Shown here: positions 6,964 through 55,818 of the stretch, one piece after another
Numbering within the stretch: position 1 is the first letter of the stretch
How the letters are laid out: every line of letters begins with the position of its first letter
Source: an uncultured virus (IMG/VR IMGVR_UViG_3300023108_002122)
Taxonomy: Duplodnaviria > Heunggongvirae > Uroviricota > Caudoviricetes
DNA length: 64,000 bases
Direction: 5' to 3' (one strand)
IMG/VR virus record: IMGVR_UViG_3300023108_002122
Made by a program: the position numbers and the translations under genes
Notes under the pieces: model-generated
Told to the model about the DNA's origin: nothing
The model's input: only the letters and a program-made list of their open reading frames with translations
Databases searched by the model: none

Positions 6964-6975
6964 TTTCTTCTCCTA

Positions 6976-7356
6976 TTACCATGCTTTACAACTCCAGTAC
7001 CTGGCTTTATCTTTAGGTCCTGGATTATCACAATTATGTCTAGCTCTAAAAGATTTACGGCGAGCTGGAATATGCTTTTTAATTGACATATTAGGATCAC
7101 CAAATTCTACTTTTTTAGCCTTACCATCTCCATCAGGATCTACATAAACCTTTGATTTTTTAACATCACCCGCAGTAGGTTTATTAAGAGTTACTTCTCT
7201 GCCTTTATAAGTTGCTTCAGAAATCTTATGTTGACCACCGCAAGATTCACATGATTCATCACAACCACAAGTTCCGTCTTCTTTAATTTTATTACCACAG
7301 CAAGAGCATTTATCTCCTACTTTGGCTTCCGTAATAAAGTGTATAAATGATTTCAT
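6976..7356 (-). CDS. Conserved T4-like phage protein with Cys-rich N-terminus (DUF6321-like C-terminus)
   Basis: Likely start MKSFIHF; CSCCG..CGCDESCESC; RRKSFRARHNC..ARYWSC..W. Confidence 0.55.
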   Translation of the reverse strand: MKSFIHFITEAKVGDKCSCCGNKIKEDGTCGCDESCESCGGQHKISEATYKGREVTLNKPTAGDVKKSKVYVDPDGDGKAKKVEFGDPNMSIKKHIPARRKSFRARHNCDNPGPKDKARYWSCKAW

Positions 7357-7357
7357 G

Positions 7358-8347
7358 TTAATTTCCTTTTTTAATTCTAAGAGATTGAGATATTCCAACT
7401 TGTTGAGGTGTACCGTTTGGAAACTCTTGTGTTCTATAATCATCAGCATTTACAAATCTAGTCGTATAACCAGTACCTGTAGGCACTCGTCTTGTATCTA
7501 TCATACTTGTTCCAACTGTTAAACCTGAACCATTAATATTATATGATATTTTCTTAGTTGCGTTATTAGCTAATTCATAATTTATAAATGGAGCAAGCAA
7601 ATCTCTCCAAGATTCTGGAGTATGTACTCGAAGTGTTTCATCTGTTGCATCAAAATATATAGGAAACTGATCTCCACCTGTTATCACTGCATAAGAGGTT
7701 TCAGGATAATCTACCTTATGTAAATAATATGTATTAACTGTTAATGGTTGATATGTAGATTCAGGTATACCACCAGAAGTATATGCACTAGTATCTGCAA
7801 TAGTATCAGCAAAAAATGTTCCTACTTGTGTTGCATTTGCTGGTGCTGCTGCAGTACTTATAAAATAAGTTCCGCCTTGAGCTGTTCCTGTAGCTGAAGT
7901 TGTAAATTGATCTATTACTGGAGTAACAAATGTATCAATAAAATCTTGGCGAGTCATTGCTTGAATTTGATAGTTCTCTGTTGCAGTGTTTGCTAAATAT
8001 ACAGGAAATTGGAAATTATTAAGATCTCCAGTTGGTTGCGGATCAGACCATCTTACTTCTCTACATGAATTGTATACCGTAGAACTTTGAGAAATGTTTG
8101 GTGTTTCAGCTTCTGTTGCAAAACGATCTACTCTAGATGTTGAAGATCCTGCAATATAATATGTATCTGTTAAAGGAAAGCCAGATAATAAATTTGGATC
8201 ACTTCCATAATTACCTATTTGTAATTCAACAGATGGAAGTTGTGCGTGAACCCAACCAGCAAATTCATTTAAATCGTCTATTGCTTCTTGATCGGCTTGC
8301 ACCATATTATTTGATCCATCAAATACAAAGGGGAATACTACTGCCAT
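7358..8347 (-). CDS. Putative virion structural protein
   Basis: Thr/Gly/Ser-rich 329 aa, downstream of late promoters. Confidence 0.5.
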   Translation of the reverse strand: MAVVFPFVFDGSNNMVQADQEAIDDLNEFAGWVHAQLPSVELQIGNYGSDPNLLSGFPLTDTYYIAGSSTSRVDRFATEAETPNISQSSTVYNSCREVRWSDPQPTGDLNNFQFPVYLANTATENYQIQAMTRQDFIDTFVTPVIDQFTTSATGTAQGGTYFISTAAAPANATQVGTFFADTIADTSAYTSGGIPESTYQPLTVNTYYLHKVDYPETSYAVITGGDQFPIYFDATDETLRVHTPESWRDLLAPFINYELANNATKKISYNINGSGLTVGTSMIDTRRVPTGTGYTTRFVNADDYRTQEFPNGTPQQVGISQSLRIKKGN

Positions 8348-8362
8348 GTTATATTCTCCAAG

Positions 8363-8545
8363 TTAATCTCTTGCGCAATAAAGAGTTCTAACTTCTGTAC
8401 CTTGAGAATCAAATATTCTTAAAACATTACTTTGAAATTTAATTGCTGAGTTAATAGTATTTTTTGTGATTGTATCTGTATTTGCGATATTTTGTAATTC
8501 ATACGTATCGCTAATCATTGTGTTGCCTGCTACTTTAATTGCCAT
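8363..8545 (-). CDS. Small putative tail-fibre-associated protein
   Basis: MAIKVAGNTMISD..LQNI N-terminus; strong AGGAGGAG RBS; late promoter upstream. Confidence 0.45.
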   Translation of the reverse strand: MAIKVAGNTMISDTYELQNIANTDTITKNTINSAIKFQSNVLRIFDSQGTEVRTLYCARD

Positions 8546-8583
8546 CTTCGTCTCCTCCTGTAAAATTGACTATTAGCAAAATA

Positions 8584-8605
8584 TATTTATACTTATTTAT
8601 AAATA
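8584..8605. promoter_or_regulatory. Divergent T4-type late promoters (TATAAATA)
   Basis: TATTTATA at 8584-8591 and palindromic TATTTATAAATA at 8594-8605 between divergent genes; gp55 is in the window. Confidence 0.7.
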
Positions 8606-8655
8606 CTAATTGATATGAATTCTTTATTATGCTAAATTAATTAGGAGATTATAAA

Positions 8656-9018
8656 ATGGCAGATGAAGAAGTTAAAAAGGTTAAAACAATTGATGCCTCG
8701 GTAATGGCTGATGCAGACTTAGATGGTGATGGACATATTTCTCAAGAGGAATATGAAATGCATCTTGAATTTAAACGTAAAGAATTAGAAGATGCTGATG
8801 CAATGAGAGATGCGCAAAGAACTATGGCATGGTTCGCTTTATTTGGTATGTTATTATATCCTTTTGCTGTTGTTCTTGCTACAATGTTAACATTAGATCA
8901 AGCTGCTAAGATTCTTGGTGATATGGCTGCTACATACTTTGTATCAGTTGCTGCTATTGTTGCTGCGTTCTTTGGTGGTCAAGCTATGGTAGCCAAAAGC
9001 GGAAAAGAAAAGAAATAA
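8656..9018 (+). CDS. EF-hand plus two-transmembrane protein
   Basis: DLDGDGHISQEE EF-hand loop; two hydrophobic helices; basic C-terminus. Confidence 0.65.
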   Translation: MADEEVKKVKTIDASVMADADLDGDGHISQEEYEMHLEFKRKELEDADAMRDAQRTMAWFALFGMLLYPFAVVLATMLTLDQAAKILGDMAATYFVSVAAIVAAFFGGQAMVAKSGKEKK

Positions 9019-9047
9019 AAAAGGGACCGGCTGGTCCCTTTCTTTTT
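9017..9047. terminator. Bidirectional intrinsic terminator
   Basis: AAAGGGACC-GGCT-GGTCCCTTT with A/T tracts between convergent genes. Confidence 0.8.
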
Positions 9048-9066
9048 GAGTATTCTAATTGCTATA

Positions 9067-9945
9067 TTAGAATGCGACGTTCATCTCTACTTTATAAGCC
9101 AGATCTGAAGCTGATGAATCATCAGTTACTGAAGCAGAGAAAATACCTCTTTCTACTTTACCAACATAGATATCTGCATCATTTTTAGTAATATACTTAC
9201 CTGTTAATGTACCAACTTCTGCAACATCCATAGATGCAACTACACCATATAGATCTTTACCAGCAACTGCATCAGAGATATCACCTAGGATACCATCATC
9301 TTGAGTTACACCAGCAGCGTCTTGTACATCGATATTAACATATGTAACACCAAAACCAGCAACATCGCCACCTACTGAATAAGCAGTATTAGTTTTACCA
9401 GCAGAAGCTTCTTGAGTTTCTACGTTAACTGAAAGACCTTGAAACTCAGTACCTAGAGTAAGGAAACGAGTATCATTTGTTACGTTTTGTGCTTTAATAT
9501 CAACACCTGCAACATTAAAAGTAAGATCAGCAGTAGCATTACCGTCACCAGACTTTTGTGTTACTTTAACACCAGCTGGACCAACGTTAGTTGCAACTGA
9601 GAACTTCTGAGAAGCTGCAGATTTTTTCTGTAGAAGGCCATTACCCTTCATACCTTTTTTGTTACCAGCCATAAGATCTAAACCACCAAGTTTAGTATCA
9701 ATCCAAACTTGTGTAGCATTAACAGAATTATCTGAAGTGTCTGCGCCGATGTCTTCTAGCATCATAGTAACTGTAGACTCGCCAGACTTACCTTTAACTG
9801 TAAGATCTAAATCTTGAGCATAATTAGCTGGACCATTACCACCTGTAAAGGTACCTTCGTAATTACCAGTAATAGAAATATCAGCGATTGCTGATGTAGT
9901 TAAAAAAGAAGCAGCTACTGCTGCTGCAATAAAAGATTTTTTCAT
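9067..9945 (-). CDS. Outer-membrane porin-like beta-barrel protein
   Basis: Signal peptide ending AIA, amphipathic strands, C-terminal YKVEMNVAF (terminal Phe). Confidence 0.75.
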   Translation of the reverse strand: MKKSFIAAAVAASFLTTSAIADISITGNYEGTFTGGNGPANYAQDLDLTVKGKSGESTVTMMLEDIGADTSDNSVNATQVWIDTKLGGLDLMAGNKKGMKGNGLLQKKSAASQKFSVATNVGPAGVKVTQKSGDGNATADLTFNVAGVDIKAQNVTNDTRFLTLGTEFQGLSVNVETQEASAGKTNTAYSVGGDVAGFGVTYVNIDVQDAAGVTQDDGILGDISDAVAGKDLYGVVASMDVAEVGTLTGKYITKNDADIYVGKVERGIFSASVTDDSSASDLAYKVEMNVAF

Positions 9946-10003
9946 TATAATCTCCTTTTATAAAATATATACACTTAAGGTGTGTAATTAACCTTCAAGA
10001 GAA

Positions 10004-10255
10004 TTAATAAACTCCAAGAATAAATTCGTCGCTTACGAGAACACGATTAGTATCGATCCTTAAGCTTTTTTCCCAGATTAGTGCAACTTTATCGCCAACT
10101 TTAATTTCATATTTGTTGACATCTGGACCAACCGCGTCGACTCGACCTGGTCTAGCACCTACATCAACCGAAGAGCCAGTTAGTACAATACCACTGGCAG
10201 TTTTCGTTTCTGCTTCTTGCTGGGTAACTAAAACGTAATTTTTCAATGGATTCAT
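10004..10255 (-). CDS. groES: GroES-like co-chaperonin
   Basis: PLKNYVLV..ETKTASGIVL..GRVDAVGP..IKVGDKV..ILG. Confidence 0.85.
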   Translation of the reverse strand: MNPLKNYVLVTQQEAETKTASGIVLTGSSVDVGARPGRVDAVGPDVNKYEIKVGDKVALIWEKSLRIDTNRVLVSDEFILGVY

Positions 10256-10272
10256 AATTTCTCCTTCAATAT

Positions 10273-10488
10273 TTAATCAAATGACGCGCAGTCAGCGATT
10301 AAATCTCCATCTTGATCAGTTGTAATAAATACATGATTTTCAATAACTTCATCGCCTATATTATAGTGAACTTCGTATTGAGCTTCATCTGAAGCATTAA
10401 TTTGTACAAATGATGAATCATCAACAACGATACTATAACCGGCTTCTACAATCAATGCATTTATTTCATCAGTAGTTAAATTTTCCAA
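10273..10488 (-). CDS. Acidic hypothetical protein
   Basis: TTG start with GGAG RBS; late promoter at 10504-10511. Confidence 0.5.
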   Translation of the reverse strand: MENLTTDEINALIVEAGYSIVVDDSSFVQINASDEAQYEVHYNIGDEVIENHVFITTDQDGDLIADCASFD

Positions 10489-10711
10489 TTTAATTCTCCG
10501 TATTATTTATAACAAAAAGTGTTACACTTATAAAACAAAGTGTAACATTGTTAACACAATATTACTTTTTAATAATATTGATTTATATATAAAAGTTTTT
10601 TTATTCTAATGTAAATAAAATTATAAGTCCAACCGCGGCTGCTATACCTGCTGCAACTGCAGTGAAAACTTCTTTCACTGTTAAATGTTTATTCATTATA
10701 TTTTCCTTTAT

Positions 10712-11134
10712 TTATAAAGTTACTTCAAGAGCTTTAAAAGCTTCTAATGTTAATTCCTCTTCTAATTCATACGCTTCCACTTCCCAAGGAGCATCATGGT
10801 AATTAATATCTTCATGAACTAATGTACCTTTCCAACGATGTACACCGCCAATAATTTCTTTTAATTCACCACGTGCATATTGTTTTACATGAATCATTTC
10901 GTGTACAACAGTACCAATTAATTCATACAAAGACATACCTTTACAAATTTCCATTTCAAATTCGCGATTTGTATCACCCATGAGGCAGTATCCATAAGCA
11001 TCACTATTTTTAATAGTGACATCGATTTCGATATTACGGATACGCGGCATGAGTTTATGGAGACACCATTCGACGGTAGATGTTACGATTTCACGTTCTT
11101 TAGATTTTCCACCGACTACATTAATATATTTCAT
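10712..11134 (-). CDS. Zincin-like metallopeptidase (HExxH)
   Basis: VVHEMIHVKQY..PWEVEAY. Confidence 0.7.
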   Translation of the reverse strand: MKYINVVGGKSKEREIVTSTVEWCLHKLMPRIRNIEIDVTIKNSDAYGYCLMGDTNREFEMEICKGMSLYELIGTVVHEMIHVKQYARGELKEIIGGVHRWKGTLVHEDINYHDAPWEVEAYELEEELTLEAFKALEVTL

Positions 11135-11172
11135 TGTGTAATATTACCACTCTTTTTACCATTTATAGTAAT

Positions 11173-11242
11173 ATTATAACATGATTTTCAAAAAATGTCA
11201 ACCTTTTTTTGAAATAAAAAAGCCTTATAAATCAATAACTTG
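11173..11242 (-). promoter_or_regulatory. sigma70 early promoter with upstream IHF-consensus site
   Basis: TTGACA-N17-TATAAT (11201-11173); AATCAATAACTTG at 11230-11242 fits WATCAANNNNTTR. Confidence 0.7.
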
Positions 11243-11251
11243 GAAAAAATT

Positions 11252-11764
11252 TCAGTCTTTTTTAAGCTTTTTGCAGAGATTATCGTATTTTGCTTGGTCA
11301 ACAACACCTTCTGATAGCAATTTTTCACGATTTTTCATATGTTTGGCCTGTACATCGTCCTTAGAGCCACCAAAATAAGGAACACAATGTCCTTCCTTAA
11401 TCATGATTTCTGTGACTAATGTGGGGGTTGTCATGCCATTATAATCCATTGAAGTAATAGGATACTCAACATAAAAATCGCCAAGAATACGACCAAATTT
11501 ACCTTTCATATCTTCGCCATCTTTATCTTCAGTAGTAACTAATTGTCCACCATTTTTCAAAAGTTCTTTTAATCTATTTTTAGCAGCAATACCAAATAGT
11601 TTTTCTACTTTGTCGCTTGTGCGTGATTCTGGTGTGTCAATGCCCATAATTCTTACACGCTCATCGCGTAGCCAAACACCAAAACCAAGGTTGATGTTAA
11701 CATCGACTGTATCACCATCTACTACTTTAATTAGTTCTACGTCATATCTATTTTGCTGTGCCAT
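11252..11764 (-). CDS. Thermonuclease (SNase-fold) family nuclease
   Basis: KVVDGDTV..VRIMGIDTPE..GKFGRILG. Confidence 0.85.
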   Translation of the reverse strand: MAQQNRYDVELIKVVDGDTVDVNINLGFGVWLRDERVRIMGIDTPESRTSDKVEKLFGIAAKNRLKELLKNGGQLVTTEDKDGEDMKGKFGRILGDFYVEYPITSMDYNGMTTPTLVTEIMIKEGHCVPYFGGSKDDVQAKHMKNREKLLSEGVVDQAKYDNLCKKLKKD

Positions 11765-29538: not shown

Positions 29539-30060
29539 ATGGCTAAGCGTAACTACGTTAATAATAAAGACCTACTCGCAGCAATGGTAGATTATAAAGC
29601 AAGTTGCCAAGAAGCAGAAGAAGCTGGTGACAAAAAACCACGCGTTCCTGATTATATTGGTGAATGCATTTTACAAATTGCTACGAGATTGGCTACTAAA
29701 CCAAATTTTTCTGGATATTCATATAAAGAAGATATGATTTCAGACGGTATTGAAAACTGTTTACTTTACATAAGCAACTTTAATCCAGATAAATCTAATA
29801 ATCCATTTGCATACTTTACACAAATTATTTGGTATGCATTCTTAAGACGTATTGCAAAAGAAAAGAAACAAATGTATATTCGTTTCAAATCTTCTCAAGC
29901 ATTTCTCGCAGCAGGTCAAACATATGAAGGTGATGAAGATTTAAGTTTACATTTAAATACTGCAGCAGATTATATGAATACATTTATTGAAGATTTTGAA
30001 GATAAACTTAATCGTGATAAACAAAAGAAAAAAGAAAAAGAAGAAGAAAAGAAAAAATGA
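29539..30060 (+). CDS. gp55: Late-transcription sigma factor
   Basis: YVNNK, NFSGYSYKEDMISDGIENC, NPFAYFTQI..AF.RRI.KEK. Confidence 0.95.
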   Translation: MAKRNYVNNKDLLAAMVDYKASCQEAEEAGDKKPRVPDYIGECILQIATRLATKPNFSGYSYKEDMISDGIENCLLYISNFNPDKSNNPFAYFTQIIWYAFLRRIAKEKKQMYIRFKSSQAFLAAGQTYEGDEDLSLHLNTAADYMNTFIEDFEDKLNRDKQKKKEKEEEKKK

Positions 30061-30416
30061 GATTTACAAAAGAACACGAATGGATTAAAAAAGAAGGTGA
30101 CTTATATTTAGTTGGAGTTACTCAACATGCTATTGAATTATTAGGTGATTTGGTTTATATTGAATTACCAGCACCAGGTGAAGTGTTTGATAAAGATACA
30201 GAATGTGCTGTAGTAGAATCTGTTAAAGCAGCTTCAGATGTTTATTGTCCAGTATCAGGCCTGGTGACTGAAATTAATGCATCATTAGAAGATACGCCTG
30301 AAGCAGTAAGTGATGATTGGACTACATGGATATTTAAATTAGAAAATGTAAACGAAGCAGATTTAGAAGATTTTATGGATGAGGAAGCTTATAATAAGTA
30401 TATCGAGGGATTATAA
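30057..30416 (+). CDS. gcvH: Glycine cleavage system H protein (lipoyl carrier)
   Basis: RFTKEHEW, LGDLVYIELP, VESVKAASDVYCPVSG with lipoyl Lys. Confidence 0.9.
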   Translation: MRFTKEHEWIKKEGDLYLVGVTQHAIELLGDLVYIELPAPGEVFDKDTECAVVESVKAASDVYCPVSGLVTEINASLEDTPEAVSDDWTTWIFKLENVNEADLEDFMDEEAYNKYIEGL

Positions 30417-33474: not shown

Positions 33475-36054
33475 ATGCCTGATTTTTACACCAACGTAGA
33501 TCGAATTGGTAACTTTATTCTATGGCGAGGATATCAAGCCGGACGAAAGTTCGAACGTAAAATTAAATACGAACCTACTATCTTTGTAGGTACTAATAAT
33601 AAAGAATCGATGTGGAAATCTCTTATTGATGATAGTCCACTTCAGGCTACTAAAAAAGGTACGATGAAAGATACTCGTATCTATATCGAAGATCATAAAG
33701 ATGTTCATGGATTTAAAATTGCTGGTAATAGTAATTATGTTGCGCAATTTATTCAAGAGCATTATCCTGATAATATTGAATTTGATCCATCATTAATTAA
33801 TATCGTTTCGTTTGATATAGAGGTTGATATATCTGATGGTTATGCTAATATTAACCAAGCAGATAAAGAAATTACATCTATTGCTTACAAGTCGACTAAA
33901 CACCTAAGGTATCATTTGCTTGGTCGTAAAGACTATGATAAGACTCAAACTATTACTGATATTAATCCAGATAATATCGAATTTAAAAAGTTTGATACTG
34001 AACATCAATTACTTCAAGAGTTTAAACGTATTTGGATGGAAGACTATCCTGATATTGTAACTGGTTGGAACGTTGAATATTTTGATATTCAATATATTAT
34101 AACTCGTATGATTCGTTTATTTGGCGAAGACTGGGTTAAAGATCTATCTCCTTGGCGTAATATTCGTCAGCAATCTCGTGAAGTATTTGGTAAAAAACAA
34201 TCAACTTGGTCTATATCTGGTATATCGATTATTGATTATATGGATGCTTTTAAGAAGTTTGGTTACAAATATGGTCCACAAGAATCTTATAAACTAGATC
34301 ATATTGCTTACGTCGTGCTTGGTGAAAAGAAATTAGATTACTCTGAATATGGTTCTTTGACTGCTTTGTACGAACAAAATCCACAACTTTATTTGGATTA
34401 TAACCTTAAAGATACATGGCTTGTTGAAAAGCTTGAAGAGGAATCAGGTCTACTATCTCTTGTAATGACTGTTGCTTATGGTGGAGGTGTAAACTATTCT
34501 GATGCATTTGGTACCGTGAGTATTTGGGAAACAACTCTTTATCGTCGACTGATGAAAAAAGGTATTGTGCCTCCATTAAAAGGTGGTCCTGGTGAACGCG
34601 TTGCTGAACTCGTTGGTGGTTATGTTAAAGATCCAAAGGTTGGAATGCATCCTTGGGTTGTCTCATTCGATCTAAATTCTCTATATCCACACCTGATGTT
34701 ACAATATAACTTGTCACCAGAAACATATGTAGACAACGCACGAGAATATATTAACCAAGATATGGTGCTCAATGGACAAGAAGTTGCAGATCCTAATAAT
34801 CCTGGTAGTACAATGCGTGTACCATATCAAAACAGATCTAGGTATGCAACATGTGCTAATGGTGCATGCTTTAGAAAAGATAAACTTGGTATCATTCCTG
34901 AAATCATTGATGAATATTATGCTACTCGATCTGGAATTAAAAAGCGTATGTTACAAGTTGAACAAGAACTTGAAACTGCGAAGGGTACTGATAAATTAGC
35001 TCTTAAACGAGAAGCTAACCAATTACATAATCAGCAAATGGCGATTAAGATTGCTATGAACTCTTTGTATGGCGCAACAGCAAATATTTACTTCCTATAT
35101 TATATTAACGATATGGCTGAAGCAATTACAACATCTGGCCAATTGTCAATTCGTTACGCTCAAAAATCTGTAAACGAATATCTAAATAAGTTATTGAAAA
35201 CAGATAGTGTTGATTATATTATCTACATCGATACAGATTCTATCTATGTTAATATGGGACCTGTTATTCAAGCTTCGTTTGGTACAATGGATATCGATCG
35301 TGCTAAAGGTGAAGAGTTCCTTGATAAAATTTGTGAAATGAAAATTGAACCTATTATTGATGCTGGTTATAAAGAACTTGCTGAAAAGATGGGAGCATAT
35401 CGACAAGCAATGAGTATGAAGCGAGAAAAGATTACTGATAAAGCAGTATTCATTGCAAAGAAACGTTATATTTTAAATGCACTTAACTCAGAAGGTGTAC
35501 ATTATGAACAACCTAAGATTTCTGTTACAGGTTTGGAATCAGTACGATCTTCTACTCCGGAAGTTTGTCGTGATAAACTGAAAGCAGCATTTAAAGTAAT
35601 TATGAATGAAGGTGAAGAAGCAATGCAAGAATTTATTGCTAATTTTAAAGATGAGTTCTTTAAACTACCACCTGAAGCTATTGGCCGTAACTCCGGTACA
35701 GATAATATAGATAAGTATAGGAATAGAGAAACATTGTACAAAAAAGGTTGTCCAATGCACGTAAGAGGTTGTATTCTTTATAATTATCATTTGAAAGAAA
35801 AGCAGTTAGATAAAAAATTCGAATCTGTTATTTCAGGTGATAAAGTAAAGTTTGTTTATCTTAAAACACCTAATCCTATTCGTGAAAATATTATATCGTT
35901 TCCCGGAGTACTTCCTAAAGAACTTGGATTGCATGACTATATAGATTATGAAAAGCAATTCGAAAAGGTTTTTCTAAGTCCTCTTGAATCTATCCTCGAA
36001 GCGATCGGTTGGTCTGCAGAGAAGGTAAATACTCTTGAAGACTTTTTTGTTTAA
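33475..36054 (+). CDS. gp43: Family B DNA polymerase
   Basis: DIEV exonuclease, [27 protein letters not shown]-terminal clamp-binding LEDFF. Confidence 0.97.
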
Positions 36055-36249: not shown

Positions 36250-36765
36250 ATGAGTAAAGATTGGGCCCAAGATATTCATGAAATGCAAAACAAGTTCCAA
36301 CTACCTAATTGGGTAAAGGATAATCCAGATAAACTTAAAGAGTTTTTAGAGTTTAGGATTCGTTTTGTTCGTGAAGAATTGGAAGAAACAGAAAAAGCGT
36401 TTGCAAATAAAATTGACGCAGAAGAAATTGTAGATGGTTTAATTGATATATGTGTAGTTGCTATCGGCACACTTGATGCATTTAAAGTAAATTCTCATCA
36501 GGCATGGGATCAAGTTATGGAAGCTAATATGTCAAAAGAAGTTGGTGTAAAACCAGAAAGACCAAATCCACTTGGTTTACCAGATTTAATGAAACCAGAA
36601 GGTTGGCAAGCTCCATCTCATGCTGGTAATCACGGTTTATTAGCAAATCTATATCGTCTTGATAAGATTGGACAAGGACTAAAACAGCAAGTAGAATCAG
36701 GAACTTTGTCTGCAGATGATCTAGATTATATTGAAAAAATTGCAAAAAGTTTGAAAAAAGGCTAA
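36250..36765 (+). CDS. All-alpha NTP pyrophosphohydrolase (MazG/PRA-PH-like)
   Basis: EELEE..EIVDGLID..V.EANMSK..KPEGW..P. Confidence 0.8.
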   Translation: MSKDWAQDIHEMQNKFQLPNWVKDNPDKLKEFLEFRIRFVREELEETEKAFANKIDAEEIVDGLIDICVVAIGTLDAFKVNSHQAWDQVMEANMSKEVGVKPERPNPLGLPDLMKPEGWQAPSHAGNHGLLANLYRLDKIGQGLKQQVESGTLSADDLDYIEKIAKSLKKG

Positions 36766-39794: not shown

Positions 39795-40184
39795 ATGAAA
39801 CAAAAAGTAACAAAAACTCCCGAAGCTTCAGTAAAGTATTCTAAAAATACTCCTGAGGCTGTAAAAGTACTTCAAGAGTGTATTGATTTACAACTTAAAA
39901 AATCTAGAGATTATCAAAATCCAAACTCACCAATCAAACAAGCAGATTATTATCCAAGTGGTGTACAAACAATTTATGAAGTTATGTGGGCTAAAATGCT
40001 TCGTATGAAATCTGTTATGGAAGCAATGAAAGCTTCTGATGGATATGATCCTAATTTTGAAAGCCTAGAAGACAGCGCTAAAGATCTTGCTAACTATGCA
40101 AGCTTCTTTGTTTCTTATTGTCGTGGAGGTATTGGAGGACAAACTGAAGGTAAAGATATTTTCAATAAACCAATAAAGAAATAA
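39795..40184 (+). CDS. Nucleotide-modification-associated alpha-helical protein (Nmad1/DUF1599-like)
   Basis: LQLKKSRDY..K.LR..ESLEDSAKDLANY. Confidence 0.65.
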   Translation: MKQKVTKTPEASVKYSKNTPEAVKVLQECIDLQLKKSRDYQNPNSPIKQADYYPSGVQTIYEVMWAKMLRMKSVMEAMKASDGYDPNFESLEDSAKDLANYASFFVSYCRGGIGGQTEGKDIFNKPIKK

Positions 40185-40196: not shown

Positions 40197-40892
40197 ATGA
40201 TGAACGTTGCTGATATTAAAAATTACTTTGTTGGTGAACTTGAAGCTCAACGCTTTACCGTAGATAAAACTGGTGCAAAAACTATTGAGATGCTTGGTGC
40301 ATCTTTTAAAGCAGATAAACCAGCCATTTTTGGAGTACCTTCTGATGAGTATATACAAAAAGAAATCGCGTGGTATGAAAAGCAATCAACCAACATTAAT
40401 GACATCTATGGTGAAGAACGTGATGCTCCTGCTGCTTGGAAATATGCTGCTGATGCTTATGGGAATATTAATAGTAATTATGGAAAAATAGTTTTTTCTG
40501 ATCAATACTATAATCAATTTGAAAATGCATTAAATGAACTGAGAAACAATCCAGACTCTCGTAGAGCTGAAATGGTTTATAACCGTCCAAGTATTTGGAA
40601 AGAGTTTGATGAGAATGGTAAATCAGATTTTATTTGTACTAATGCACAAACATTCTATATTCGTGATGGTAAACTTCATTTGGTTTCTCAAATGAGATCT
40701 AATGATGTTGTATTTGGTTATAAAAATGATTATGCTTGGGCTCAATATCTAATGGATAAAATGGTTACTGCATATAATGATACTATAGATCTAGATAGTG
40801 ATTACATTACTAAAGGCGATCTTATTTGGCAAGTACAAAACTTACACGTTTACGAAAGACATTTTGAATTAGTTGAAGCGTATGGGATGTAA
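40197..40892 (+). CDS. gp42: dCMP hydroxymethylase (thymidylate synthase fold)
   Basis: INSNYG, SRRA, SDFICTN, MRSNDVVFGYKNDYAW (Asp at the pyrimidine-specificity position), LHVYERHF. Confidence 0.8.
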   Translation: MMNVADIKNYFVGELEAQRFTVDKTGAKTIEMLGASFKADKPAIFGVPSDEYIQKEIAWYEKQSTNINDIYGEERDAPAAWKYAADAYGNINSNYGKIVFSDQYYNQFENALNELRNNPDSRRAEMVYNRPSIWKEFDENGKSDFICTNAQTFYIRDGKLHLVSQMRSNDVVFGYKNDYAWAQYLMDKMVTAYNDTIDLDSDYITKGDLIWQVQNLHVYERHFELVEAYGM

Positions 40893-41067: not shown

Positions 41068-41355
41068 ATGAAAAAATCACCTATTAATAATATGCAGCAA
41101 TTGTTAGCAATTACTGCCGAGGAATGTGGAGAATTAACTCAAGCTTGCATGAAAATAATGAGAATGAATAATACCAAACAAGGAATGTTTGATAATAACG
41201 AGTATTATAATTCTTTATTAGATGAAGTTGGAGATGTTGCTTGTATGATTGGGTTACTTATAGAGCACGGATTTGTAGATGAAGATGTTATAACAAACCG
41301 TGCAATAGCTAAAAGAGAAAAGTTAAGACAATGGAGTACATTAATTAATGACTGA
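41068..41355 (+). CDS. MazG-like NTP pyrophosphohydrolase
   Basis: EECGELTQA..LLDEVGDV. Confidence 0.75.
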   Translation: MKKSPINNMQQLLAITAEECGELTQACMKIMRMNNTKQGMFDNNEYYNSLLDEVGDVACMIGLLIEHGFVDEDVITNRAIAKREKLRQWSTLIND

Positions 41356-41797
41356 TAAGTGGGATAAGCGATTTATGAATGTCGCAAGAGAAATCTCTAC
41401 GTGGAGTAAAGATCCAAGTACTAAAATTGGTGCTATCATTGTTAATGATGAAAGACGTATTCTTGCAACTGGTTATAATGGTTTTCCAAAAGGTATTGAA
41501 GATACTGATGAAAGACTATATAATAAAGAACAAAAATATACTCGCGTAATTCATGCAGAAATGAATGCTCTTATGAATGCATTATATAATGGAGTATCAG
41601 TTAAAGATTCTACTTTATACGTATGGGGTTTACCAGTTTGTTCTGAATGTGCAAAGAATGTTATCCAAGCTGGTATTAAAAGAGTTGTAATTCCCGATTA
41701 TGAAGTTATAGATTTAAGATGGGAAAAAGTTTGGTTAACTAAATCTCAGCCAATGTTTGAAGAAGCGGGTTTACAAATCTCGTATTTGGAGTTATAA
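41348..41797 (+). CDS. cd: dCMP deaminase
   Basis: [21 protein letters not shown]. Confidence 0.9.
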
Positions 41798-41804
41798 TAG
41801 TATT

Positions 41805-42137
41805 ATGAGTTATTTAGTTATAGATAATTGTGTTAAATGTAAGCACACTGATTGTGTTGAGGTTTGTCCTGTAGACTGCTTTTATGAAGGACCTGATATG
41901 TTAGTAATCAATCCAAGCGAATGTATTGATTGTGGTGTATGTGAACCTGAATGTCCTGTTGATGCAATTGTGTTAGAAACAGATTTAAAAGAAGATGAAC
42001 GTAAGTTATGGACAGAAAGAAATGAAAAGTATTCTGAAATCTGGCCTAATATTGTAGATAAAAAAGATCCTCCATTTGATTTTGATGAGTGGGAGGGTGT
42101 ACCTAATAAGTTTGAAAAATTTGTGGAGCCAAAATGA
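41805..42137 (+). CDS. fdxA: 7Fe/8Fe ferredoxin (FdxA type), start MSYLV
   Basis: [30 protein letters not shown]. Confidence 0.9.
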
Positions 42138-43231
42138 AAAAAGTTTTAATTACTGGAATGAATAAATTACAATGTACAAAAGATTTCTTTTTGCAACAAC
42201 AATTGCAAGTTGTACCTTCTCACTATTCTGTTATTCGTTCTCTTGAAGATATGGGTTATCAAGTAGAACAAAGACCTGTAGCACTTGGTGAAGATCTATC
42301 TGGTTATGATGAGGTTATTGTTTATATTCATAGTATTCAATCGTTTTGTCAATTCATTTGGTCTGGTTTATATGCAGTACATGCCCGCCCTAATTGTATT
42401 ATTGCCTTTGATGATTGGCAATTTAATCAAATCTATGGAGCCATTCAAACATATAAAGAGAACCTCGAGAATGACGATCCAGGTGTTTTTAGACAATACC
42501 TATTTGATCTATGGCAGGGTAAAGAAGATAAAGAAACAGTGATGAAATATAAAGACGCATATATTGATGGCTGTAATATTATTACAAGTAAACAAAATAG
42601 ATTATTAGTAAGTGCATTCGCTGGTGGTGATTTATCAACACTAGAATTAGGATGGAGTCCAGAAAATACATACACATTTAATCCAAATCCATATCATCTT
42701 AATCGTCGTGCAGACAATGGATATGGAACTGGAACAGTGGGATTAGATAATTTCTTTGGTGATACACCAGAAAAAGAAATGAAATGGAACTTCGCTTCTC
42801 TAGTGCAAGAGAAAACGAGGAAATGGTTAAAGGCACAGCAACCTGACGATTGGAAGTGGGAAATTGTTTATTATGGCGCTAAGCGCGGAAAATACAAGTC
42901 AGAGCGTAAAACTGAGCCCGAGATGGTGAAGGTATTCGAACAACAGTGGGGTTGTTTAATGCCAGGATACTTTCACGCAGGATCCGGGTGGTGGCGAGCA
43001 CGCCCGCTTCAGGTTGCCGATGCCGGTTCTATTATCATTGGTGATAAACCAGAAATGATGGTATATTATCAAGATGATTATTTAGCGGGACTAAAAGTTT
43101 CAGATGTAGAAGCAATGGATCTTACACAACTTAAACAAACTGCTCAAGCACAAAGAGATGCATTATATGATAATCATCCTCTAGATAAAAAAGTACAACA
43201 AGAAGAAATGAAGAATATTTTAGAAGCATGA
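42134..43231 (+). CDS. GT-B glycosyltransferase, T4 beta-glucosyltransferase-like
   Basis: KVLITG..VPS..EDMG..YDEVIV N-domain and [20 protein letters not shown]-domain echo the BGT layout; adjacent to glf and near gp42. Confidence 0.5.
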
Positions 43232-44244
43232 ATATATTAGTAGTAGGCGCAGGATTATCAGGAGTAACAATTGCACGTGAGATGGCTGAAGCCGGACATA
43301 TTGTAGATGTAATTGATAAACGCGATCATATTGCTGGTAATGCTTATGATTATATTAATGAATATGGTATTCGTGTACATCAATATGGACCCCATTTATT
43401 TCATACAAATAATAAAGAAGTGTTTTCTTATCTTTCTAAATTTACCGAATGGGTTCCATATAAGCATAAAGTGAAAGCATTATTAGAAGATGGTCGTTAT
43501 GCAACTCTACCAGTAAATAAAGAAACAAAAGAAATGGTTGGTGAATCAAATGTACTTGATATTTTCTTTAGACCATATACAAAGAAAATGTGGGGAGTTG
43601 AGCTTGATGAATTAAATCCTGATATTGTAAATCGTGTTCCAATTCGTGATGATGATAACGAATATTATTTTCCAAACGATGCATATCAGTTTATGCCAAA
43701 AGACGGTTATACTAAAATGGTGGAAAATATTTTATCTCATATAAACATTACGGTAAAATTGAAAACAGAATACGATAAAGAAATGAATAGTCATTATGAT
43801 CATGTATTTAATTCAATGCCAATTGATCAGTACTTTGATTTTAAACATGGAGACTTACCATATCGATCTATTAAATTTGAAACTATAACAGTACCATTAC
43901 CTATAGCATTACCAACTGCTACAGTTAATTTTACTCATGATGGTCCACAAACTAGAGTAACAGAATGGAAGCGCATCCCGTTTCATGGTATAAATAAATA
44001 TCATACAACATTAACTTTTGAAACTCCGTGTGATTATAAAGATAATAATATGGAGCGTTACTATCCTATTAAAGATAAAGATGGTACAAATAGAAAGTTA
44101 TATGAACAGTATAAAAGTGAGCAACCGGATAATATGACTTTTATCGGTAGATGTGGATTATATGCGTATTTAGATATGCATCAAGCTGTAAATTCTGCAT
44201 TAGCTACCGCAAAAAGATTTTTAGAGAATGAAACACGAAACTAG
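43228..44244 (+). CDS. glf: UDP-galactopyranose mutase
   Basis: VVGAGLSG, HIAGNAYD, HQYGPHLFHT, YTKKMWG, LPYRS, RYYP, GRCGLYAYLDMHQ. Confidence 0.92.
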   Translation: MNILVVGAGLSGVTIAREMAEAGHIVDVIDKRDHIAGNAYDYINEYGIRVHQYGPHLFHTNNKEVFSYLSKFTEWVPYKHKVKALLEDGRYATLPVNKETKEMVGESNVLDIFFRPYTKKMWGVELDELNPDIVNRVPIRDDDNEYYFPNDAYQFMPKDGYTKMVENILSHINITVKLKTEYDKEMNSHYDHVFNSMPIDQYFDFKHGDLPYRSIKFETITVPLPIALPTATVNFTHDGPQTRVTEWKRIPFHGINKYHTTLTFETPCDYKDNNMERYYPIKDKDGTNRKLYEQYKSEQPDNMTFIGRCGLYAYLDMHQAVNSALATAKRFLENETRN

Positions 44245-44360: not shown

Positions 44361-45560
44361 ATGAGTGAGTTTACACATGCAAGTATAGTACCTTTAATTG
44401 GTGGTGAAACAATAGGATCTGCAAATGCTTTTGGATCTCCTCCATTACATTTTATGTCATATGAAGCGTTTGCTAATAACGATCAGCATATTAGAAATTA
44501 TTATAAAGATACGCCATATTACGTTTTAGATAAAGGTGATAAAATACCAGAGCAAAGAGCTGATGTAGTTTCATCGGTATGTCCTTGTGCTGGTTTATCA
44601 ATGATGTCTCACGGTTATGGCGATGATAATCAAAATAATAAATGGATGGTAGAAACAGCAACTACTATTCTTGGTGATTATAGACCAAAAGTATTCTGGG
44701 GAGAAAATGCTCCAGGATTTGCTGGTAAGATTGGAAAAAATATTCGTGAACAATTAAGAGGTATTGGTAAAGAGAATGGATACACAATGAGTGTATATCG
44801 TACTCGTTCTTTATTGCATGGTGTACCTCAGGTAAGAGAACGTTCTTTTTATTTCTTTTGGCAAGGTAATCAAGTTCCTATTTTTGATTATTATAAAAGA
44901 GATTATACACCAATTGAAACGCTTATTCGTAATGCAAAAGGTACTCAAAATAATCCTATTAATAAAAACACACCATCTGAAAATCCATATTACAAATATA
45001 TTCTTGAAGAGATTGAAGGTGGTAAAACACATGCTCAACATTCCAATTCAGTTCCTCCAACATCAGCAAGAGGTGTAGATGCTTTTTCTTATATTGAAAG
45101 AGCAGGTAAAGATTATAGCCAAGTTGGTAAATGGATGGGTGAAAATGGATTTGAAAAAGAAGTAGAAAAATGTGAATACAAATATGATAAACTAAAAGCC
45201 GGTAAAAGTATTATGAGACGTGGAGTAATTATTCCTAAAGATCGTATTGGTGCTTTTGTTGGTCATTATCCTACAATGCTTACACATCCAGATGAGGATA
45301 GATTTATTACATATCGAGAAGCTATGTCTATTATGGGATTGCCAGAAGATTTTGAATTAGTAGATGCTAGTAAAAAGAATGCTAATCATATTTGTCAAAA
45401 CGTTCCTGTAAAAACTGCTCAAGATATGGCGCATGAAGTATTACAAACTTTAAAAGGTAAAAGAAAAATGGTTGACACGGAGTACGTTTTGCAGTATAAT
45501 ACTACTAATAAGCTTGAATTTGATGAGAGCTTAAGTACCCTAGAGGATTTTTTAGTATGA
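44361..45560 (+). CDS. Atypical DNA cytosine-C5 methyltransferase-fold protein
   Basis: PCAGLS (motif IV), ENAP (VI), QVRER (VIII), R..T.RE...MGLP.DF (IX); motif I reads PLIGG and motif X reads CQNVP. Confidence 0.75.
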   Translation: MSEFTHASIVPLIGGETIGSANAFGSPPLHFMSYEAFANNDQHIRNYYKDTPYYVLDKGDKIPEQRADVVSSVCPCAGLSMMSHGYGDDNQNNKWMVETATTILGDYRPKVFWGENAPGFAGKIGKNIREQLRGIGKENGYTMSVYRTRSLLHGVPQVRERSFYFFWQGNQVPIFDYYKRDYTPIETLIRNAKGTQNNPINKNTPSENPYYKYILEEIEGGKTHAQHSNSVPPTSARGVDAFSYIERAGKDYSQVGKWMGENGFEKEVEKCEYKYDKLKAGKSIMRRGVIIPKDRIGAFVGHYPTMLTHPDEDRFITYREAMSIMGLPEDFELVDASKKNANHICQNVPVKTAQDMAHEVLQTLKGKRKMVDTEYVLQYNTTNKLEFDESLSTLEDFLV

Positions 45561-46186
45561 GAACAGACTTTATTTTAGACTTTGAAACTATTGGACAAGT
45601 TGCATCGGAGGTTCCAGCAATTGAATGTTCATATACAACATTTGTATGGGATCGTTTTTTAGAAGATCCATATACATTTGAAGAGCTTGTTTCAAAAATA
45701 AAAAAAGATAAACTTTCTATTTCGGATCAAATGAAAAATTATGATTTTAAATATAAAGAGGATGATCTTAAATGGTGGATGAATCAATCACCTGAAGTAA
45801 GAAAGTTGCTTAAACCAAAAGATAGTGATCTTACAGTACCTCAATTTATTGAACGTATGATAGAATATTTGAGAACATCTGATAAGATTGAATATTGGTG
45901 GGCTAGAGCAAATGGTTTTGATCCAGTTATATTAGATCATTTGTCTCGTTCTGCTAATAAAGATTTATTACTCAATGAGTATATTCCTTATTGGAGAGTA
46001 AGAGACACTCGCACATTTATTGATGCGAAGTTTAATTTTACAACAAGAAACGGTTTTGTACCAATTGCAGATGAAGAGCATTGGAATAAAATTTTTAATG
46101 CACATGATAGTACTCATGATGTGGCGGCTGATGTTCTACGATTACAAGCTATTCATAGAGCAGAAAATGATTTAGAACAAGTATAA
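45557..46186 (+). CDS. dexA: DnaQ-like 3'-5' exonuclease (DexA-like)
   Basis: ILDFET, WW..Q, ANGFDPVIL, RDTRT, HDSTHD. Confidence 0.8.
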   Translation: MRTDFILDFETIGQVASEVPAIECSYTTFVWDRFLEDPYTFEELVSKIKKDKLSISDQMKNYDFKYKEDDLKWWMNQSPEVRKLLKPKDSDLTVPQFIERMIEYLRTSDKIEYWWARANGFDPVILDHLSRSANKDLLLNEYIPYWRVRDTRTFIDAKFNFTTRNGFVPIADEEHWNKIFNAHDSTHDVAADVLRLQAIHRAENDLEQV

Positions 46187-46198: not shown

Positions 46199-47077
46199 AT
46201 GGAAATAAAAGTAACAATCGAAGAACTTAGAAAGCATAAAGTATTTGTAGGAACACCAATGTATGGTGCTCAATGCGCTGGTACTTATACTAAATCAAGT
46301 ACTGACTTAGCAATGATAGCAGCTGCAAATGGTTTAAATTTCAGATTCTATTATCTATTTAATGAGAGTTTAATTCAAAGAGCTCGTAATTATATTGTAG
46401 ATGAGTTTATGAGATCTGATTGTACTCATTTATTATTCATTGATTCTGATATTGGTTTTAATGCAAGAGATGTTTTATCTTTATTGGCTGTTCAAACATC
46501 AGATCCAGAAAAATATAATATTGTTACTGGACCATATCCAAAGAAAACTATTGCATGGGAAAAGGTATACAAAGCAGCACAAGCAGGTAGAGCAGATGAA
46601 AATCCATTTGAATTAGAAAACTACGCTGCTGATTTTGTATTTAATCCAGTAAAGAAAGTTAATCAGTTTAATTTATCTGAACCAATTGAAATTGGTGAAG
46701 GTGGTACAGGATTTATGTTAATTCCTCGTGAAACTTTTGAAAAGTTTGGTAAGGCATATCCTGAATTACAATATAAACCAGATCATGTTAGAACACAACA
46801 GTTTGATGGTTCTCATGATATTATGGCTTATTTCGATTGTATAATCGATCCAGTGTCTAAGCGCTATTTGTCTGAAGATTATTTCTTCTGTCATAAAGCA
46901 CGTGAAGCTGGAATGCATGTTTATATGTGTCCTTGGATGCAATTACAACATATAGGATCTTATATTTTCAAAGGAAATATGGCTGCTATTGGAAGTCTTG
47001 GTGTTTCTGCAACAGCAGATTCTTCTGGTAGTCGTAAAACTTATGAAAAGAAAAAGAAAAAGAAACGTAAAAAATAG
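46199..47077 (+). CDS. GT-A fold glycosyltransferase-like phage protein
   Basis: TPMYG, ESLIQRARN, LFIDSDI, GTGFMLI, LSEDYFFC, HIG. Confidence 0.75.
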   Translation: MEIKVTIEELRKHKVFVGTPMYGAQCAGTYTKSSTDLAMIAAANGLNFRFYYLFNESLIQRARNYIVDEFMRSDCTHLLFIDSDIGFNARDVLSLLAVQTSDPEKYNIVTGPYPKKTIAWEKVYKAAQAGRADENPFELENYAADFVFNPVKKVNQFNLSEPIEIGEGGTGFMLIPRETFEKFGKAYPELQYKPDHVRTQQFDGSHDIMAYFDCIIDPVSKRYLSEDYFFCHKAREAGMHVYMCPWMQLQHIGSYIFKGNMAAIGSLGVSATADSSGSRKTYEKKKKKKRKK

Positions 47078-47144: not shown

Positions 47145-47810
47145 ATGAAATTTTCTGAACAAACTCTTACTATTTTAAAGAGCTTTGCATCGATTAATAA
47201 ATCGATTCTAATGAAACCTGGTAATACACTTAAAACTGTAACACCGGAAAAAACTTTGATCGCAACTGCAGATATTCCGGATACAATCCCATCTGAAGCT
47301 TGCGTATATGATTTATCAAGATTTTTATCAATTCTTGGTCTTTATTCTGACCCAGATGTGGAATTTCATGATAAATACTTTATGATTAAAGATGGTAAGC
47401 GTAAAACAAGATATGCTTTCGCTGACATCTCTATGATTCATGCAGCGCCAGAGAAGACAATTCAATTGCCTTCTAATGACGTTGAGGTTGATGTATCATG
47501 GGACGACTTACAGTCTGTTATTAAGGCTGCTGGTGTTCTACAATTTTCTGAGATTGCTTTCGTTGGTGAAGCAGGTAAAGTTTACCTAAAAGCCGTTGAT
47601 AGTACATCTGAAAATTCTGATGATTATGGAATTGAAATTGGTGATACGTCTGATGAATTTAAGATTATTATTAAAAGTGATAATCTTAAGCTTTTACCTC
47701 AGGATTACAAAGTTACTCTTTGCGCGAAGGGTATCTCTGAGTTTAAAGGCAAGGGTGCTACATATTTTGTAGCAATTGATACTAAGTCGACTTATAAGGA
47801 AGGAAATTAA
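47145..47810 (+). CDS. gp45: Sliding clamp
   Basis: MKFSEQTLTILKSFASINKSI, YDLSRFLS, NLKLLPQDYKV. Confidence 0.92.
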   Translation: MKFSEQTLTILKSFASINKSILMKPGNTLKTVTPEKTLIATADIPDTIPSEACVYDLSRFLSILGLYSDPDVEFHDKYFMIKDGKRKTRYAFADISMIHAAPEKTIQLPSNDVEVDVSWDDLQSVIKAAGVLQFSEIAFVGEAGKVYLKAVDSTSENSDDYGIEIGDTSDEFKIIIKSDNLKLLPQDYKVTLCAKGISEFKGKGATYFVAIDTKSTYKEGN

Positions 47811-50159: not shown

Positions 50160-50672
50160 ATGAAAATTTATAAAGTGAATAAGGAAGCAACTCTTCCTGA
50201 ATACGCAACCGACGGTTCCGCGTGTTTCGATGTTAAAGCATGTGTCAAAAAAGGTCAAAGACTTAAATCATATAATAACTGGAATAAAGAGATGGCGATT
50301 GTTGTCAAAGGTGTTGGCAATTCTCAAGATGCATTTCAACTTCCACCAGATTGTAGATGTTTAATCCCAACAGGTTTAATTTTTGATATTCCAAAAGGCC
50401 ACGTAATGAAAATGTATATTCGTTCTGGTACTGCTCTAAAGAAAGGATTACAACTATCAAATGGTACTGGTATTATTGATTCTGATTATGTAGAAGAAAC
50501 ATACATTATGGTTACTAATGTAACTGATTCTTTAGTTACTATTGAAAATGGTGAAAGACTTGCACAATGTTTAATAGAAAAAACGTTACAAGAAGAAATT
50601 AAAGAAACTAAAACAGCTCCAAAACAAAAGACTAATAGAGATGGTGGTTTTGGAAGTACTGGAAAAAAATAG
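50160..50672 (+). CDS. dut: Trimeric dUTPase
   Basis: SACFD, RSG, GIIDSDY, GERLAQ, RDGGFGSTG. Confidence 0.92.
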   Translation: MKIYKVNKEATLPEYATDGSACFDVKACVKKGQRLKSYNNWNKEMAIVVKGVGNSQDAFQLPPDCRCLIPTGLIFDIPKGHVMKMYIRSGTALKKGLQLSNGTGIIDSDYVEETYIMVTNVTDSLVTIENGERLAQCLIEKTLQEEIKETKTAPKQKTNRDGGFGSTGKK

Positions 50673-55365: not shown

Positions 55366-55818
55366 TTATTTTATTCCTAGCTGATCTTCCGTATAAATTG
55401 CAAAATCCCATCCTCGTCCTGTGCACCAAGCTCGAGCCGCTTTCCATTTTGCTTCGTTTATTCCCCAAGTTTTAACCTCGTTTAAATACCTTCTTGAAAC
55501 CTTTCCGTTTGCAGTCTTTTTATTTCTAATATCTGGCGGTCTAGTTTGAGACTTAGGTTTGATTTCAATCATCAAAGTTCTAGGTCCTGCTGGTGTTTTC
55601 CTATGTATTACTACATCTGGAAAATACCTATGTCTTTTACCGTCAATTGGTGAGTAATATGGTATTACGTATTCCTCACTTGCCCACCAAATAACATCAG
55701 GATGAATATCTACATGCCTAAAAAATTTAAACTCCCACATTGAGCGGTAGTATATTTTAGACGGATCACCCTTATATTTGCTAGGATTTTTTGGACGAAA
55801 TCTTCCACTATAAGCCAA
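55366..55818 (-). CDS. gp4: Head completion nuclease
   Basis: PKNPSKYKGD..YRSMWE, HRYFPD, EIKP, NEAKW. Confidence 0.92.
   Translation of the reverse strand: MAYSGRFRPKNPSKYKGDPSKIYYRSMWEFKFFRHVDIHPDVIWWASEEYVIPYYSPIDGKRHRYFPDVVIHRKTPAGPRTLMIEIKPKSQTRPPDIRNKKTANGKVSRRYLNEVKTWGINEAKWKAARAWCTGRGWDFAIYTEDQLGIK

Follow-up and report, generated by a model that had tools for sequence, protein, structure and literature searches.

The DNA analyzed here is a 64,000-nucleotide stretch of an uncultured virus (IMG/VR record IMGVR_UViG_3300023108_002122), called the window below, and is part of a marine T4-like myovirus with about 32% G+C. At 44361..45560 on its + strand, it encodes a protein of 399 amino acids that has the fold of the cytosine-C5 DNA methyltransferases (C5-MTases), with the base-attacking residues intact. 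Judged from aligned sequences, the positions on its cofactor side, where C5-MTases hold S-adenosylmethionine (SAM), are non-canonical yet strictly conserved across a distinct phage clade, here termed the PLIGG/QNVP clade. Moreover, its C-terminus resembles the predicted clamp-binding tail of the DNA polymerase encoded in the same window, and the phage DNA probably carries 5-hydroxymethylcytosine (5hmC) in place of cytosine. We propose that this open reading frame (ORF) may encode a cytosine-C5 enzyme that is tethered to the clamp and acts on freshly replicated 5hmC DNA, probably not by plain SAM methylation, a reading whose chances we put at about even.

The ORF matches PF00145 above the curated threshold (7e-21, 75.4 bits against a cutoff of 22), over ORF residues 59–360 and only positions 55–322 of the profile, and misses the cutoff of the NCBIfam model TIGR00675 (dcm; 37.9 bits against 100.65). 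Its start codon is sound because its N-terminus agrees with those of its relatives. The AlphaFold2 model, calculated with 118 relatives as input, has a predicted local distance difference test (pLDDT) value of 95.1 and a predicted template modeling score of 0.93. By VIA superposition, model residues 1–367 fall on residues 9–325 of M.HhaI (Z 25.9, root-mean-square deviation 3.1 Å over 294 residues), and M.HaeIII, DNMT1 and CmoX (PDB 8YF3) superpose with Z values of 25.8, 25.5 and 24.0, respectively; the two-domain fold of PF00145 enzymes is present. A profile of the family, searched against PDB, also had CmoX among its best matches (E-value 9.2e-15), and in a protein atlas the ORF matched its own kind only, named cytosine methyltransferase. 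Relatives at E ≤ 0.001 numbered 2668 among 5044 candidates, with 903 cluster representatives.

The original prediction had read the catalytic PC, EN and QxRxR motifs in the translation, and all of them are there. Pro75-Cys76 of motif IV (44583..44588, + strand like all segments of the ORF given below), within "CPCAGLS", aligns to the PC of HhaI and HaeIII, and Cys76 is kept in 117 of the 118 diverse relatives in which residue conservation was counted throughout. Motif VI is Glu115-Asn116-Ala117 (44703..44711) within "GENAPG", conserved in 118, 116 and 114 relatives, and motif VIII is Gln157-Val-Arg159-Glu-Arg161 (44829..44843) within "PQVRER", with Gln157 in 115 and both Arg in 118. The Cys, the Glu and the Arg-x-Arg are the residues by which C5-MTases flip cytosine out of the helix and attack its C6. 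A motif IX-like "RxxTxRExxxxMGxP" is retained as well, so that the ORF shares with M.HhaI, M.HaeIII and E. coli Dcm both the fold and the Pro-Cys, Glu-Asn, Arg-x-Arg and motif IX signatures. It differs from canonical enzymes on the base side, where the residue after Cys76 is Ala in 104/118 relatives and the Val position of motif VI is Ala in 114/118, the consensus residues at both positions being larger than Ala, and in a target-recognition region that is mostly helical in the model. In our proposal, which has about even chances as a whole, the ORF encodes a protein of DNA methyltransferase fold that is catalytically active at C5 of cytosine.

The cofactor side departs much further from the canonical pattern. 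Motif I has the consensus F-x-G-x-G. At its position, located by the ranges of the VIA superposition, the ORF reads P-L-I-G-G (residues 11–15, 44391..44405) after Val10, and the clade reads V/I-P-L-I-G-G: Pro11 is kept in 117/118 relatives, Gly14 in 118 and Gly15 in 116, and Leu12 replaces the first Gly of the consensus in 116. Position 10, the counterpart of the motif I Phe, is Ile in 56 and Val in 50 relatives (106/118). Strand 2 (residues 31–33 in the model) ends in Ser33-Tyr34-Glu35 (44457..44465), where canonical enzymes have the ribose-binding Glu of motif II and then an aromatic residue. Position 33 is Ser or Thr in 113/118, position 34 is aromatic in 111/118 and position 35 is acidic in only 35/118; in a register that is uncertain by about one residue, the motif II Glu has no conserved counterpart in the clade. 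Motif X, G-N-A/S-V-P in canonical enzymes, lacks its Gly-Asn, as the clade reads x-Q-N-V-P, here C-Q-N-V-P, with Gln346, Asn347, Val348 and Pro349 (45396..45407) conserved in 116, 113, 115 and 106 of 118. Profile alignments set "cQNVPv" on "GNAVPV" of HaeIII and on "GRMVPP" of CmoX, so that Gln346 falls on the HaeIII Asn, at the place of HhaI Asn304 and CmoX Arg350. In CmoX, the canonical adenine and ribose contacts are made by Phe25, which stacks on the SAM adenine, Glu47, which binds the ribose hydroxyls, Phe48 and Asp69, and Arg350 contacts the transferred group (PMC12783734). The original prediction had called the SAM-binding motifs remodeled; the family-wide change of the Phe and first Gly of motif I, the Glu of motif II and the Asn of motif X backs this more strongly than was written there. 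Because the pocket appears rebuilt, the reaction may well be other than ordinary methyl transfer from canonically bound SAM, with roughly equal chances on either side.

The base that such an enzyme would meet is indicated by a gene upstream. At 40197..40892 (+ strand), the window encodes a gp42-type deoxycytidine monophosphate (dCMP) hydroxymethylase, which matches the T4 enzyme (PDB 1B49) with an E-value of 4e-66. Its full-length phage matches, which include enzymes of T-even-type phages, share 44–51% identity with it. The catalytic Cys and Asp169 are present, and Asp stands where E. coli ThyA has N177 and L143, so that the window enzyme carries the signature of T4-type 5-hydroxymethyl-dCMP synthases by the diagnostic residues defined in PMC13326640. 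The same paper, from 2026, gives Asn at the ThyA Asp169 position as the mark of 5-hydroxy-dCMP synthases; because Asp169 is kept, this assignment was ruled out. The earlier expectation that the genome modifies C5 before replication is thus borne out by both the match and the signature. In related loci, a gp42-like gene was found in 38/38 of those with at least 6.5 kb of upstream sequence, which, these contigs being kin, is synteny and not 38 independent events. More telling is the pairing in two further contigs (L069 and L104), Pseudoalteromonas phage XG4 and cyanophage S-TIM5, four lineages with different gene orders in which a neighboring thymidylate-synthase homolog has Asp at the N177 position.

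The main rival reading is an ordinary SAM-dependent, site-specific 5-methylcytosine (5mC) methyltransferase whose SAM motifs have simply diverged and whose tail only adds efficiency. Such an enzyme would methylate cytosines that escape replacement or lie in particular contexts and thereby protect the phage DNA; we take both the identity and this role seriously, at clearly less than even chances. The PF00145 threshold is passed, the closest folds by VIA and Foldseek are all SAM enzymes, and relatives are named "site-specific DNA-cytosine methylase" in their sources, although these names are automatic. Several observations weigh directly against our proposal. At the place of motif III, position 57 is Asp in 85/118 relatives and the Gly-Gly loop is also kept, which, like the aromatic residue at position 34, would suit an adenosine-type cofactor such as SAM. 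The mapping of Ser33, Tyr34 and Glu35 comes from secondary structure and alignment ranges, not from residue-level superposition, and residues 1–40 were aligned to canonical enzymes by no sequence method, the family profile match to PDB beginning at position 40 and hhalign to E. coli Dcm covering only positions 68–175. For motif X, one weak single-sequence alignment to HhaI disagrees and sets Asn347, not Gln346, on Asn304, in a stretch that scored −0.2 bits. Tandem paralogs occur in three contigs (L069, L102 and L104) and look like site-specific methylases with different targets. Five long relatives of 485–1462 aa (P0215, P0170, P0176, P0185 and P0260), with low-complexity or zinc-finger-like, eukaryote-like extensions, on contigs of only 1.5–5 kb, keep PL[IV]GG and QNVP, one of them (P0215) together with a CXXC zinc finger (PF02008, 6.6e-07); because they keep the clade motifs, they suggest that members of the clade can act on unmodified cytosine using a common cofactor. 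Likewise, no gene for a special cofactor stands constantly beside the enzyme, where the neighboring slot holds sugar genes. Finally, full replacement of C by 5hmC is inferred, and the dUTPase-family gene of the window (50160-50672) scores above the Dut equivalog cutoff and is like ordinary phage dUTPases rather than the gp56-type dCTPase of T4.

Against an ordinary methylase stands first the joint replacement of four canonical cofactor positions, conserved in more than 110 of the 118 diverse members. Furthermore, the TIGR00675 score lies far under its cutoff, and the clade is tied to dCMP-specific thymidylate-synthase homologs in five lineages, phages in which C5 should already be occupied. 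The association of the ORF with such a homolog, always alongside, is in itself a difference from canonical C5-MTases, as is the tail to which we now turn.

The clamp-tethered reading draws its second line of evidence from the C-terminus. The ORF ends in ...LSTLEDFLV, and its last seven residues, T-L-E-D-F-L-V (45537..45557), are a predicted gp45-binding peptide by their likeness to the end of the family B DNA polymerase (gp43 homolog, 33475..36054, + strand), which closes with ...NTLEDFFV; the last seven residues of the polymerase, T-L-E-D-F-F-V, lie at 36031-36051, and six of the seven are identical in the two proteins. This likeness, which the original prediction had pointed out, is read directly in the translations. 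A relaxed form of the tail pattern was searched at stop codons in all six frames of the 64 kb, and found only in the polymerase, the 399-aa ORF and one spurious antisense frame of 64 codons. The predicted docking partner, the gp45 sliding clamp, is encoded at 47145..47810 (+ strand; PF09116, 1.3e-19; phrog_223, 4.9e-72). In T4, the ends of gp43 and gp55 are likewise hydrophobic and acidic (NC_000866), and PMC2988020 states that gp45 is bound by the C-termini of gp43, gp55 and gp33, which are mutually interchangeable. Like these peptides, the ORF tail is short, hydrophobic and acidic, and stands at the extreme C-terminus behind a variable linker; it sits on a base-modifying enzyme, a type of protein outside the clamp ligands that the relevant part of PMC2988020 lists. 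The window also encodes a gp55-like late sigma factor (29539-30060), in which the acidic-hydrophobic stretch FIEDFEDKL is internal and precedes an end rich in lysine and glutamate, in contrast with T4 gp55, whose clamp motif lies near the C-terminus with only five residues beyond it.

Among 123 relatives with a complete 3′ end, the strict tail pattern is present in 108 and the relaxed one in 117, with 60 distinct nine-residue ends, and the tail stays at the extreme C-terminus in relatives down to about 30% identity. It also varies together with the polymerase tail. In 15 distinct pairs of methylase and polymerase tails from the same contig, the mean BLOSUM62 score was 20.4, versus 15.4 ± 1.4 after shuffling; 12 of 5000 shuffles reached the observed mean, a figure that is no probability because the contigs are related. 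The clearest case is L104, in which the polymerase and one of the two tandem paralogs both end in HVNTLF. In L069 (2417-11194), the ending x-L-F recurs on four proteins: two tandem methylase look-alikes, an AGT-like DNA glycosyltransferase and a sigma factor. The L104 stretch (4013-11497) also holds, next to the genes with the HVNTLF end, a strong match to alpha-glucosyltransferase (PF11440, 3.1e-63).

We also folded residues 350–399 with the gp45 trimer. The prediction scored 0.52, versus 0.00 for the best of three controls, and passed a mark that 116 of 157 solved complexes reach, as do 2 of 215 mismatched pairs. However, scores of 0.60 or less contain only 18 of the 157 solved complexes, plus both passing mismatches. 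The verdict is one of weak support. The runs agreed in at least 47% of their contacts and the partner pLDDT was at least 38; the fold used its own alignments and 3+1 chains, unlike the calibration. Because the complex of the RB69 clamp with a polymerase peptide is solved (cited in PMC2988020), this pass may also reflect memory.

An alternative that we consider improbable is that the likeness of the tails is a coincidence of acidic and hydrophobic C-termini, without clamp binding. The weak complex prediction leaves room for it, as does the distribution of tail types in the 118 diverse representatives, 42 of which have a gp45-like tail, 25 a hydrophobic end closing with Phe or Tyr and 51 neither. 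The homologs of S-TIM5 and XG4 lack the tail, which counts against our proposal as well; S-TIM5 forms a separate genus, Aurunvirus, outside the family of T4. It is difficult, however, to reconcile coincidence with the restriction of the tail to the polymerase and this ORF in the whole window, with its retention in 108/123 relatives and its co-variation up to the identical HVNTLF, or with the same tail on the late-sigma-like factor of L069, whose T4 counterpart is a known clamp ligand (PMC2988020). The predicted tethering to the replisome is thus well supported in silico by conservation and co-variation, and weakly by the gp45 fold. Very likely, the tail would dock the enzyme on the gp45 sliding clamp, from which it could scan DNA just behind the fork.

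What a clamp-tethered enzyme with these features might do can be outlined as follows. It would ride the gp45 clamp and act on newly copied phage DNA, where, because this DNA is probably substituted with 5hmC, the base that it meets would most likely be 5hmC, or else rare unmodified C. Cys76 would add to C6 of 5hmC and the 5-hydroxyl would leave, giving an exocyclic methylene intermediate, which a group held in the remodeled pocket would capture. Leu12, Gln346 and Asn347 would fill the space that usually takes the methionine part of SAM, and the product would be another cytosine derivative substituted at C5, or the substituent would be exchanged. C5-MTases are described as forming covalent complexes with 5hmC DNA and as destabilizing C5 substituents (PMC11347137). 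This precedent, taken with a base side made of smaller residues and a cofactor side made of larger ones, favors chemistry at the 5-substituent. Either such chemistry, passing through the exocyclic methylene, or reliance on a cofactor different from canonically bound SAM would, as far as residues can tell, have an even prospect. The original prediction had allowed for a reaction that may differ from methylation, or for the filling-in of C left unmodified. The specific mechanism by itself, with Cys76, the exocyclic methylene and a pocket-held group, is put forward more tentatively. If it applied, the ORF product might be the first enzyme in nature to apply the covalent C6 chemistry of C5-MTases to 5hmC itself instead of cytosine, a claim that we likewise regard as possible but doubtful.

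Other proposals keep the fold and change the reaction. CmoX, the DNA cytosine C5-carboxymethyltransferase of Synechococcus phage S-B43, is described in PMC12783734 with three hallmarks: "SPPC", Arg at the position of HhaI Asn304 and CmoA in the genome. It provides a precedent for non-methyl transfer by a phage protein of C5-MTase fold, its chemistry being altered at the motif X residue. The ORF could by analogy transfer a larger group from a SAM analog, for example carboxy-SAM, onto unmodified cytosine. That CmoX is among its best profile and fold matches, and that the clade deviates from methylases at the very residue that sets cofactor choice in CmoX, speak for this idea. Yet the residue is Gln346 instead of the defining Arg, "SPPC" reads "VCPC", and the clade has changed the Phe, Glu and Asp contacts to adenine and ribose that CmoX keeps. 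Moreover, CmoX is accompanied by CmoA and an amide ligase, and neither a CmoA-like nor an amide-ligase family was found by Pfam among the 67 ORFs of the window, which covers 64 kb of the genome. With Gln in place of Arg, and CmoA not found, we consider a CmoX-like transferase quite unlikely. Even less credible is a non-catalytic accessory that flips bases or reads 5hmC and presents bases to neighboring glycosyltransferases, since the catalytic Cys, Glu and both Arg are kept in 117–118 of 118 relatives and a mere binder would need none of them, although the enzyme does always adjoin the glycosyltransferase slot.

A TET-coupled pathway was ruled out, as no dioxygenase was found by Pfam among the 67 ORFs scanned and 5hmC would be made before replication. 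In the phage pathways that combine a C5-MTase, a 5mYOX/TET enzyme and glycosyltransferases, 5hmC arises after replication, by methylation and then oxidation (bioRxiv 10.1101/2023.12.21.572611). The window resembles them in that a gene of methyltransferase fold is clustered with genes for DNA glycosyltransferases and sugar-nucleotide enzymes; unlike there, 5hmC would come from the gp42-type enzyme, a route for which a methylase step is needless. The likeness to the glucosyl-5hmC system of T4 is closer, with the active-site signature of gp42, glycosyltransferase genes nearby and replication genes ordered in the T4 manner, but no gene of C5-MTase fold was seen in the 24-42 kb stretch of T4. A cellular parallel to the tail is provided by DNMT1, which docks on the proliferating cell nuclear antigen (PCNA) via a PCNA-interacting protein (PIP) box and copies the 5mC pattern with SAM. 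The logic is shared: by holding on to the replication clamp, a cytosine-C5 enzyme can modify DNA as soon as it is made. The DNMT1 motif, however, is unrelated to the ORF tail and differently placed in the protein, and the DNA expected for the ORF is 5hmC DNA.

The clade extends beyond the close relatives of the window. A second, deeply divergent branch (30–35% identity), also with this tail, is found at the corresponding position in other T4-like phages. A scan of genome contigs, limited to two peptide patterns and of little bearing on distant cellular relatives, gave 15 loci, every one in a metagenome bin: 11 have T4-like phage synteny, two (L114 and L116) show the gene alone and two (L124 and L125) are fragmentary. 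None of the 15 showed a restriction-modification context. The bins (L112-L126) are labeled Rhodobacteraceae, Planctomycetaceae, Verrucomicrobiales, Flavobacteriaceae and others, and the contigs with phage synteny in them are most likely mis-binned phage DNA.

The genes around the ORF form a 5hmC module that contains the gp42-type synthase, a deaminase, sugar genes and two glycosyltransferase-like genes. Directly upstream of the gp42-like gene, a small MazG-like hydrolase (39795..40184, + strand; phrog_18404, 3.9e-11), whose adjacency to the gp42-like gene is conserved in relatives, suggests itself as a candidate dCTP-clearing enzyme; MazG-like proteins are reported to co-locate with such synthases and with deaminases (bioRxiv 10.1101/2024.12.05.627091). 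A second MazG-like nucleotide pyrophosphohydrolase lies at 36250-36765. Downstream of the synthase come a dCMP deaminase (41348..41797, + strand; PF00383, 1.1e-22) and a ferredoxin with DUF3470 (41757-42137), an unusual cargo among replication genes. The stretch from the deaminase and ferredoxin to the look-alike varies, and relatives fill this slot with other genes. Here it holds a 365-aa protein (42134..43231, + strand; phrog_14998), for which BLAST against T4 beta-glucosyltransferase gave an E-value of 0.21 and a PDB sequence search no match, and a UDP-galactopyranose mutase (Glf; 43228..44244, + strand; PF03275, 3.3e-53; TIGR00031, 284 bits against a cutoff of 303.75), the two being translationally coupled (42134-44244). 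A phage nucleoside-diphosphate-sugar mutase for UDP-galactofuranose has been proposed in Rhizobium phage RL38JI (PMC13326640).

On the other side, a DexA-like 3′-5′ exonuclease (45557..46186, + strand) overlaps the stop codon of the look-alike and is followed by a 292-aa glycosyltransferase of GT-A fold (46199..47077, + strand; model pLDDT 79.4) with a D-S-D motif and a lysine-rich tail. This protein has no Pfam family; its Foldseek matches are STIV A197 (3.3e-07), then ppGalNAc-transferases and GlfT2, and its gene keeps its place between the exonuclease and gp45 in most relatives. Elsewhere, the window encodes the gp44/gp62 clamp loader, RegA, UvsW, UvsY, gp46/47, topoisomerase II and baseplate proteins. 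Among cultured phages, T4-like cyanophages have the closest polymerases (about 44% identity), and megablast of 10 kb against cultured phages gave no match at the DNA level. Also unusual among the replication genes is a glycine-cleavage H protein (30057-30416; PF01597, 9.1e-35), which might bear on the one-carbon supply of the hydroxymethylase. A TnsA-like endonuclease N-terminal domain protein (55366-55740, − strand; PF08722, 4.2e-22) lies among baseplate and tail genes, and 215-6447 (− strand) holds a GNAT acetyltransferase, a weak class I methyltransferase match, a glycosyltransferase-like protein, a radical SAM protein and two large proteins of unknown family.

In the literature searched, subscription journals and preprint supplements being outside its coverage, we found no paper on this clade, on its pocket or on a clamp tail on a phage methyltransferase, nor any description for phages of the clamp-organized DNA modification known for DNMT1 and PCNA. 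For phages in which C5 of cytosine should be occupied beforehand, a cytosine-C5 "methylase" is paradoxical, and the explanation would be either a new DNA base or a back-up that closes gaps in 5hmC substitution. The enzyme described here is real, unusual and conserved, and its chemistry stands a fair chance of being new; an enzyme that derivatizes 5hmC in DNA would serve epigenetic sequencing chemistry. That the polymerase and the look-alikes, joined in one relative by a sigma factor and a glycosyltransferase, share one type of tail suggests that DNA decoration in these phages is organized on the sliding clamp. If the exocyclic-methylene mechanism holds, abundant marine phages would carry an undescribed cytosine derivative, and phage base modification would be coupled to the replisome as DNMT1 is to PCNA in animals.

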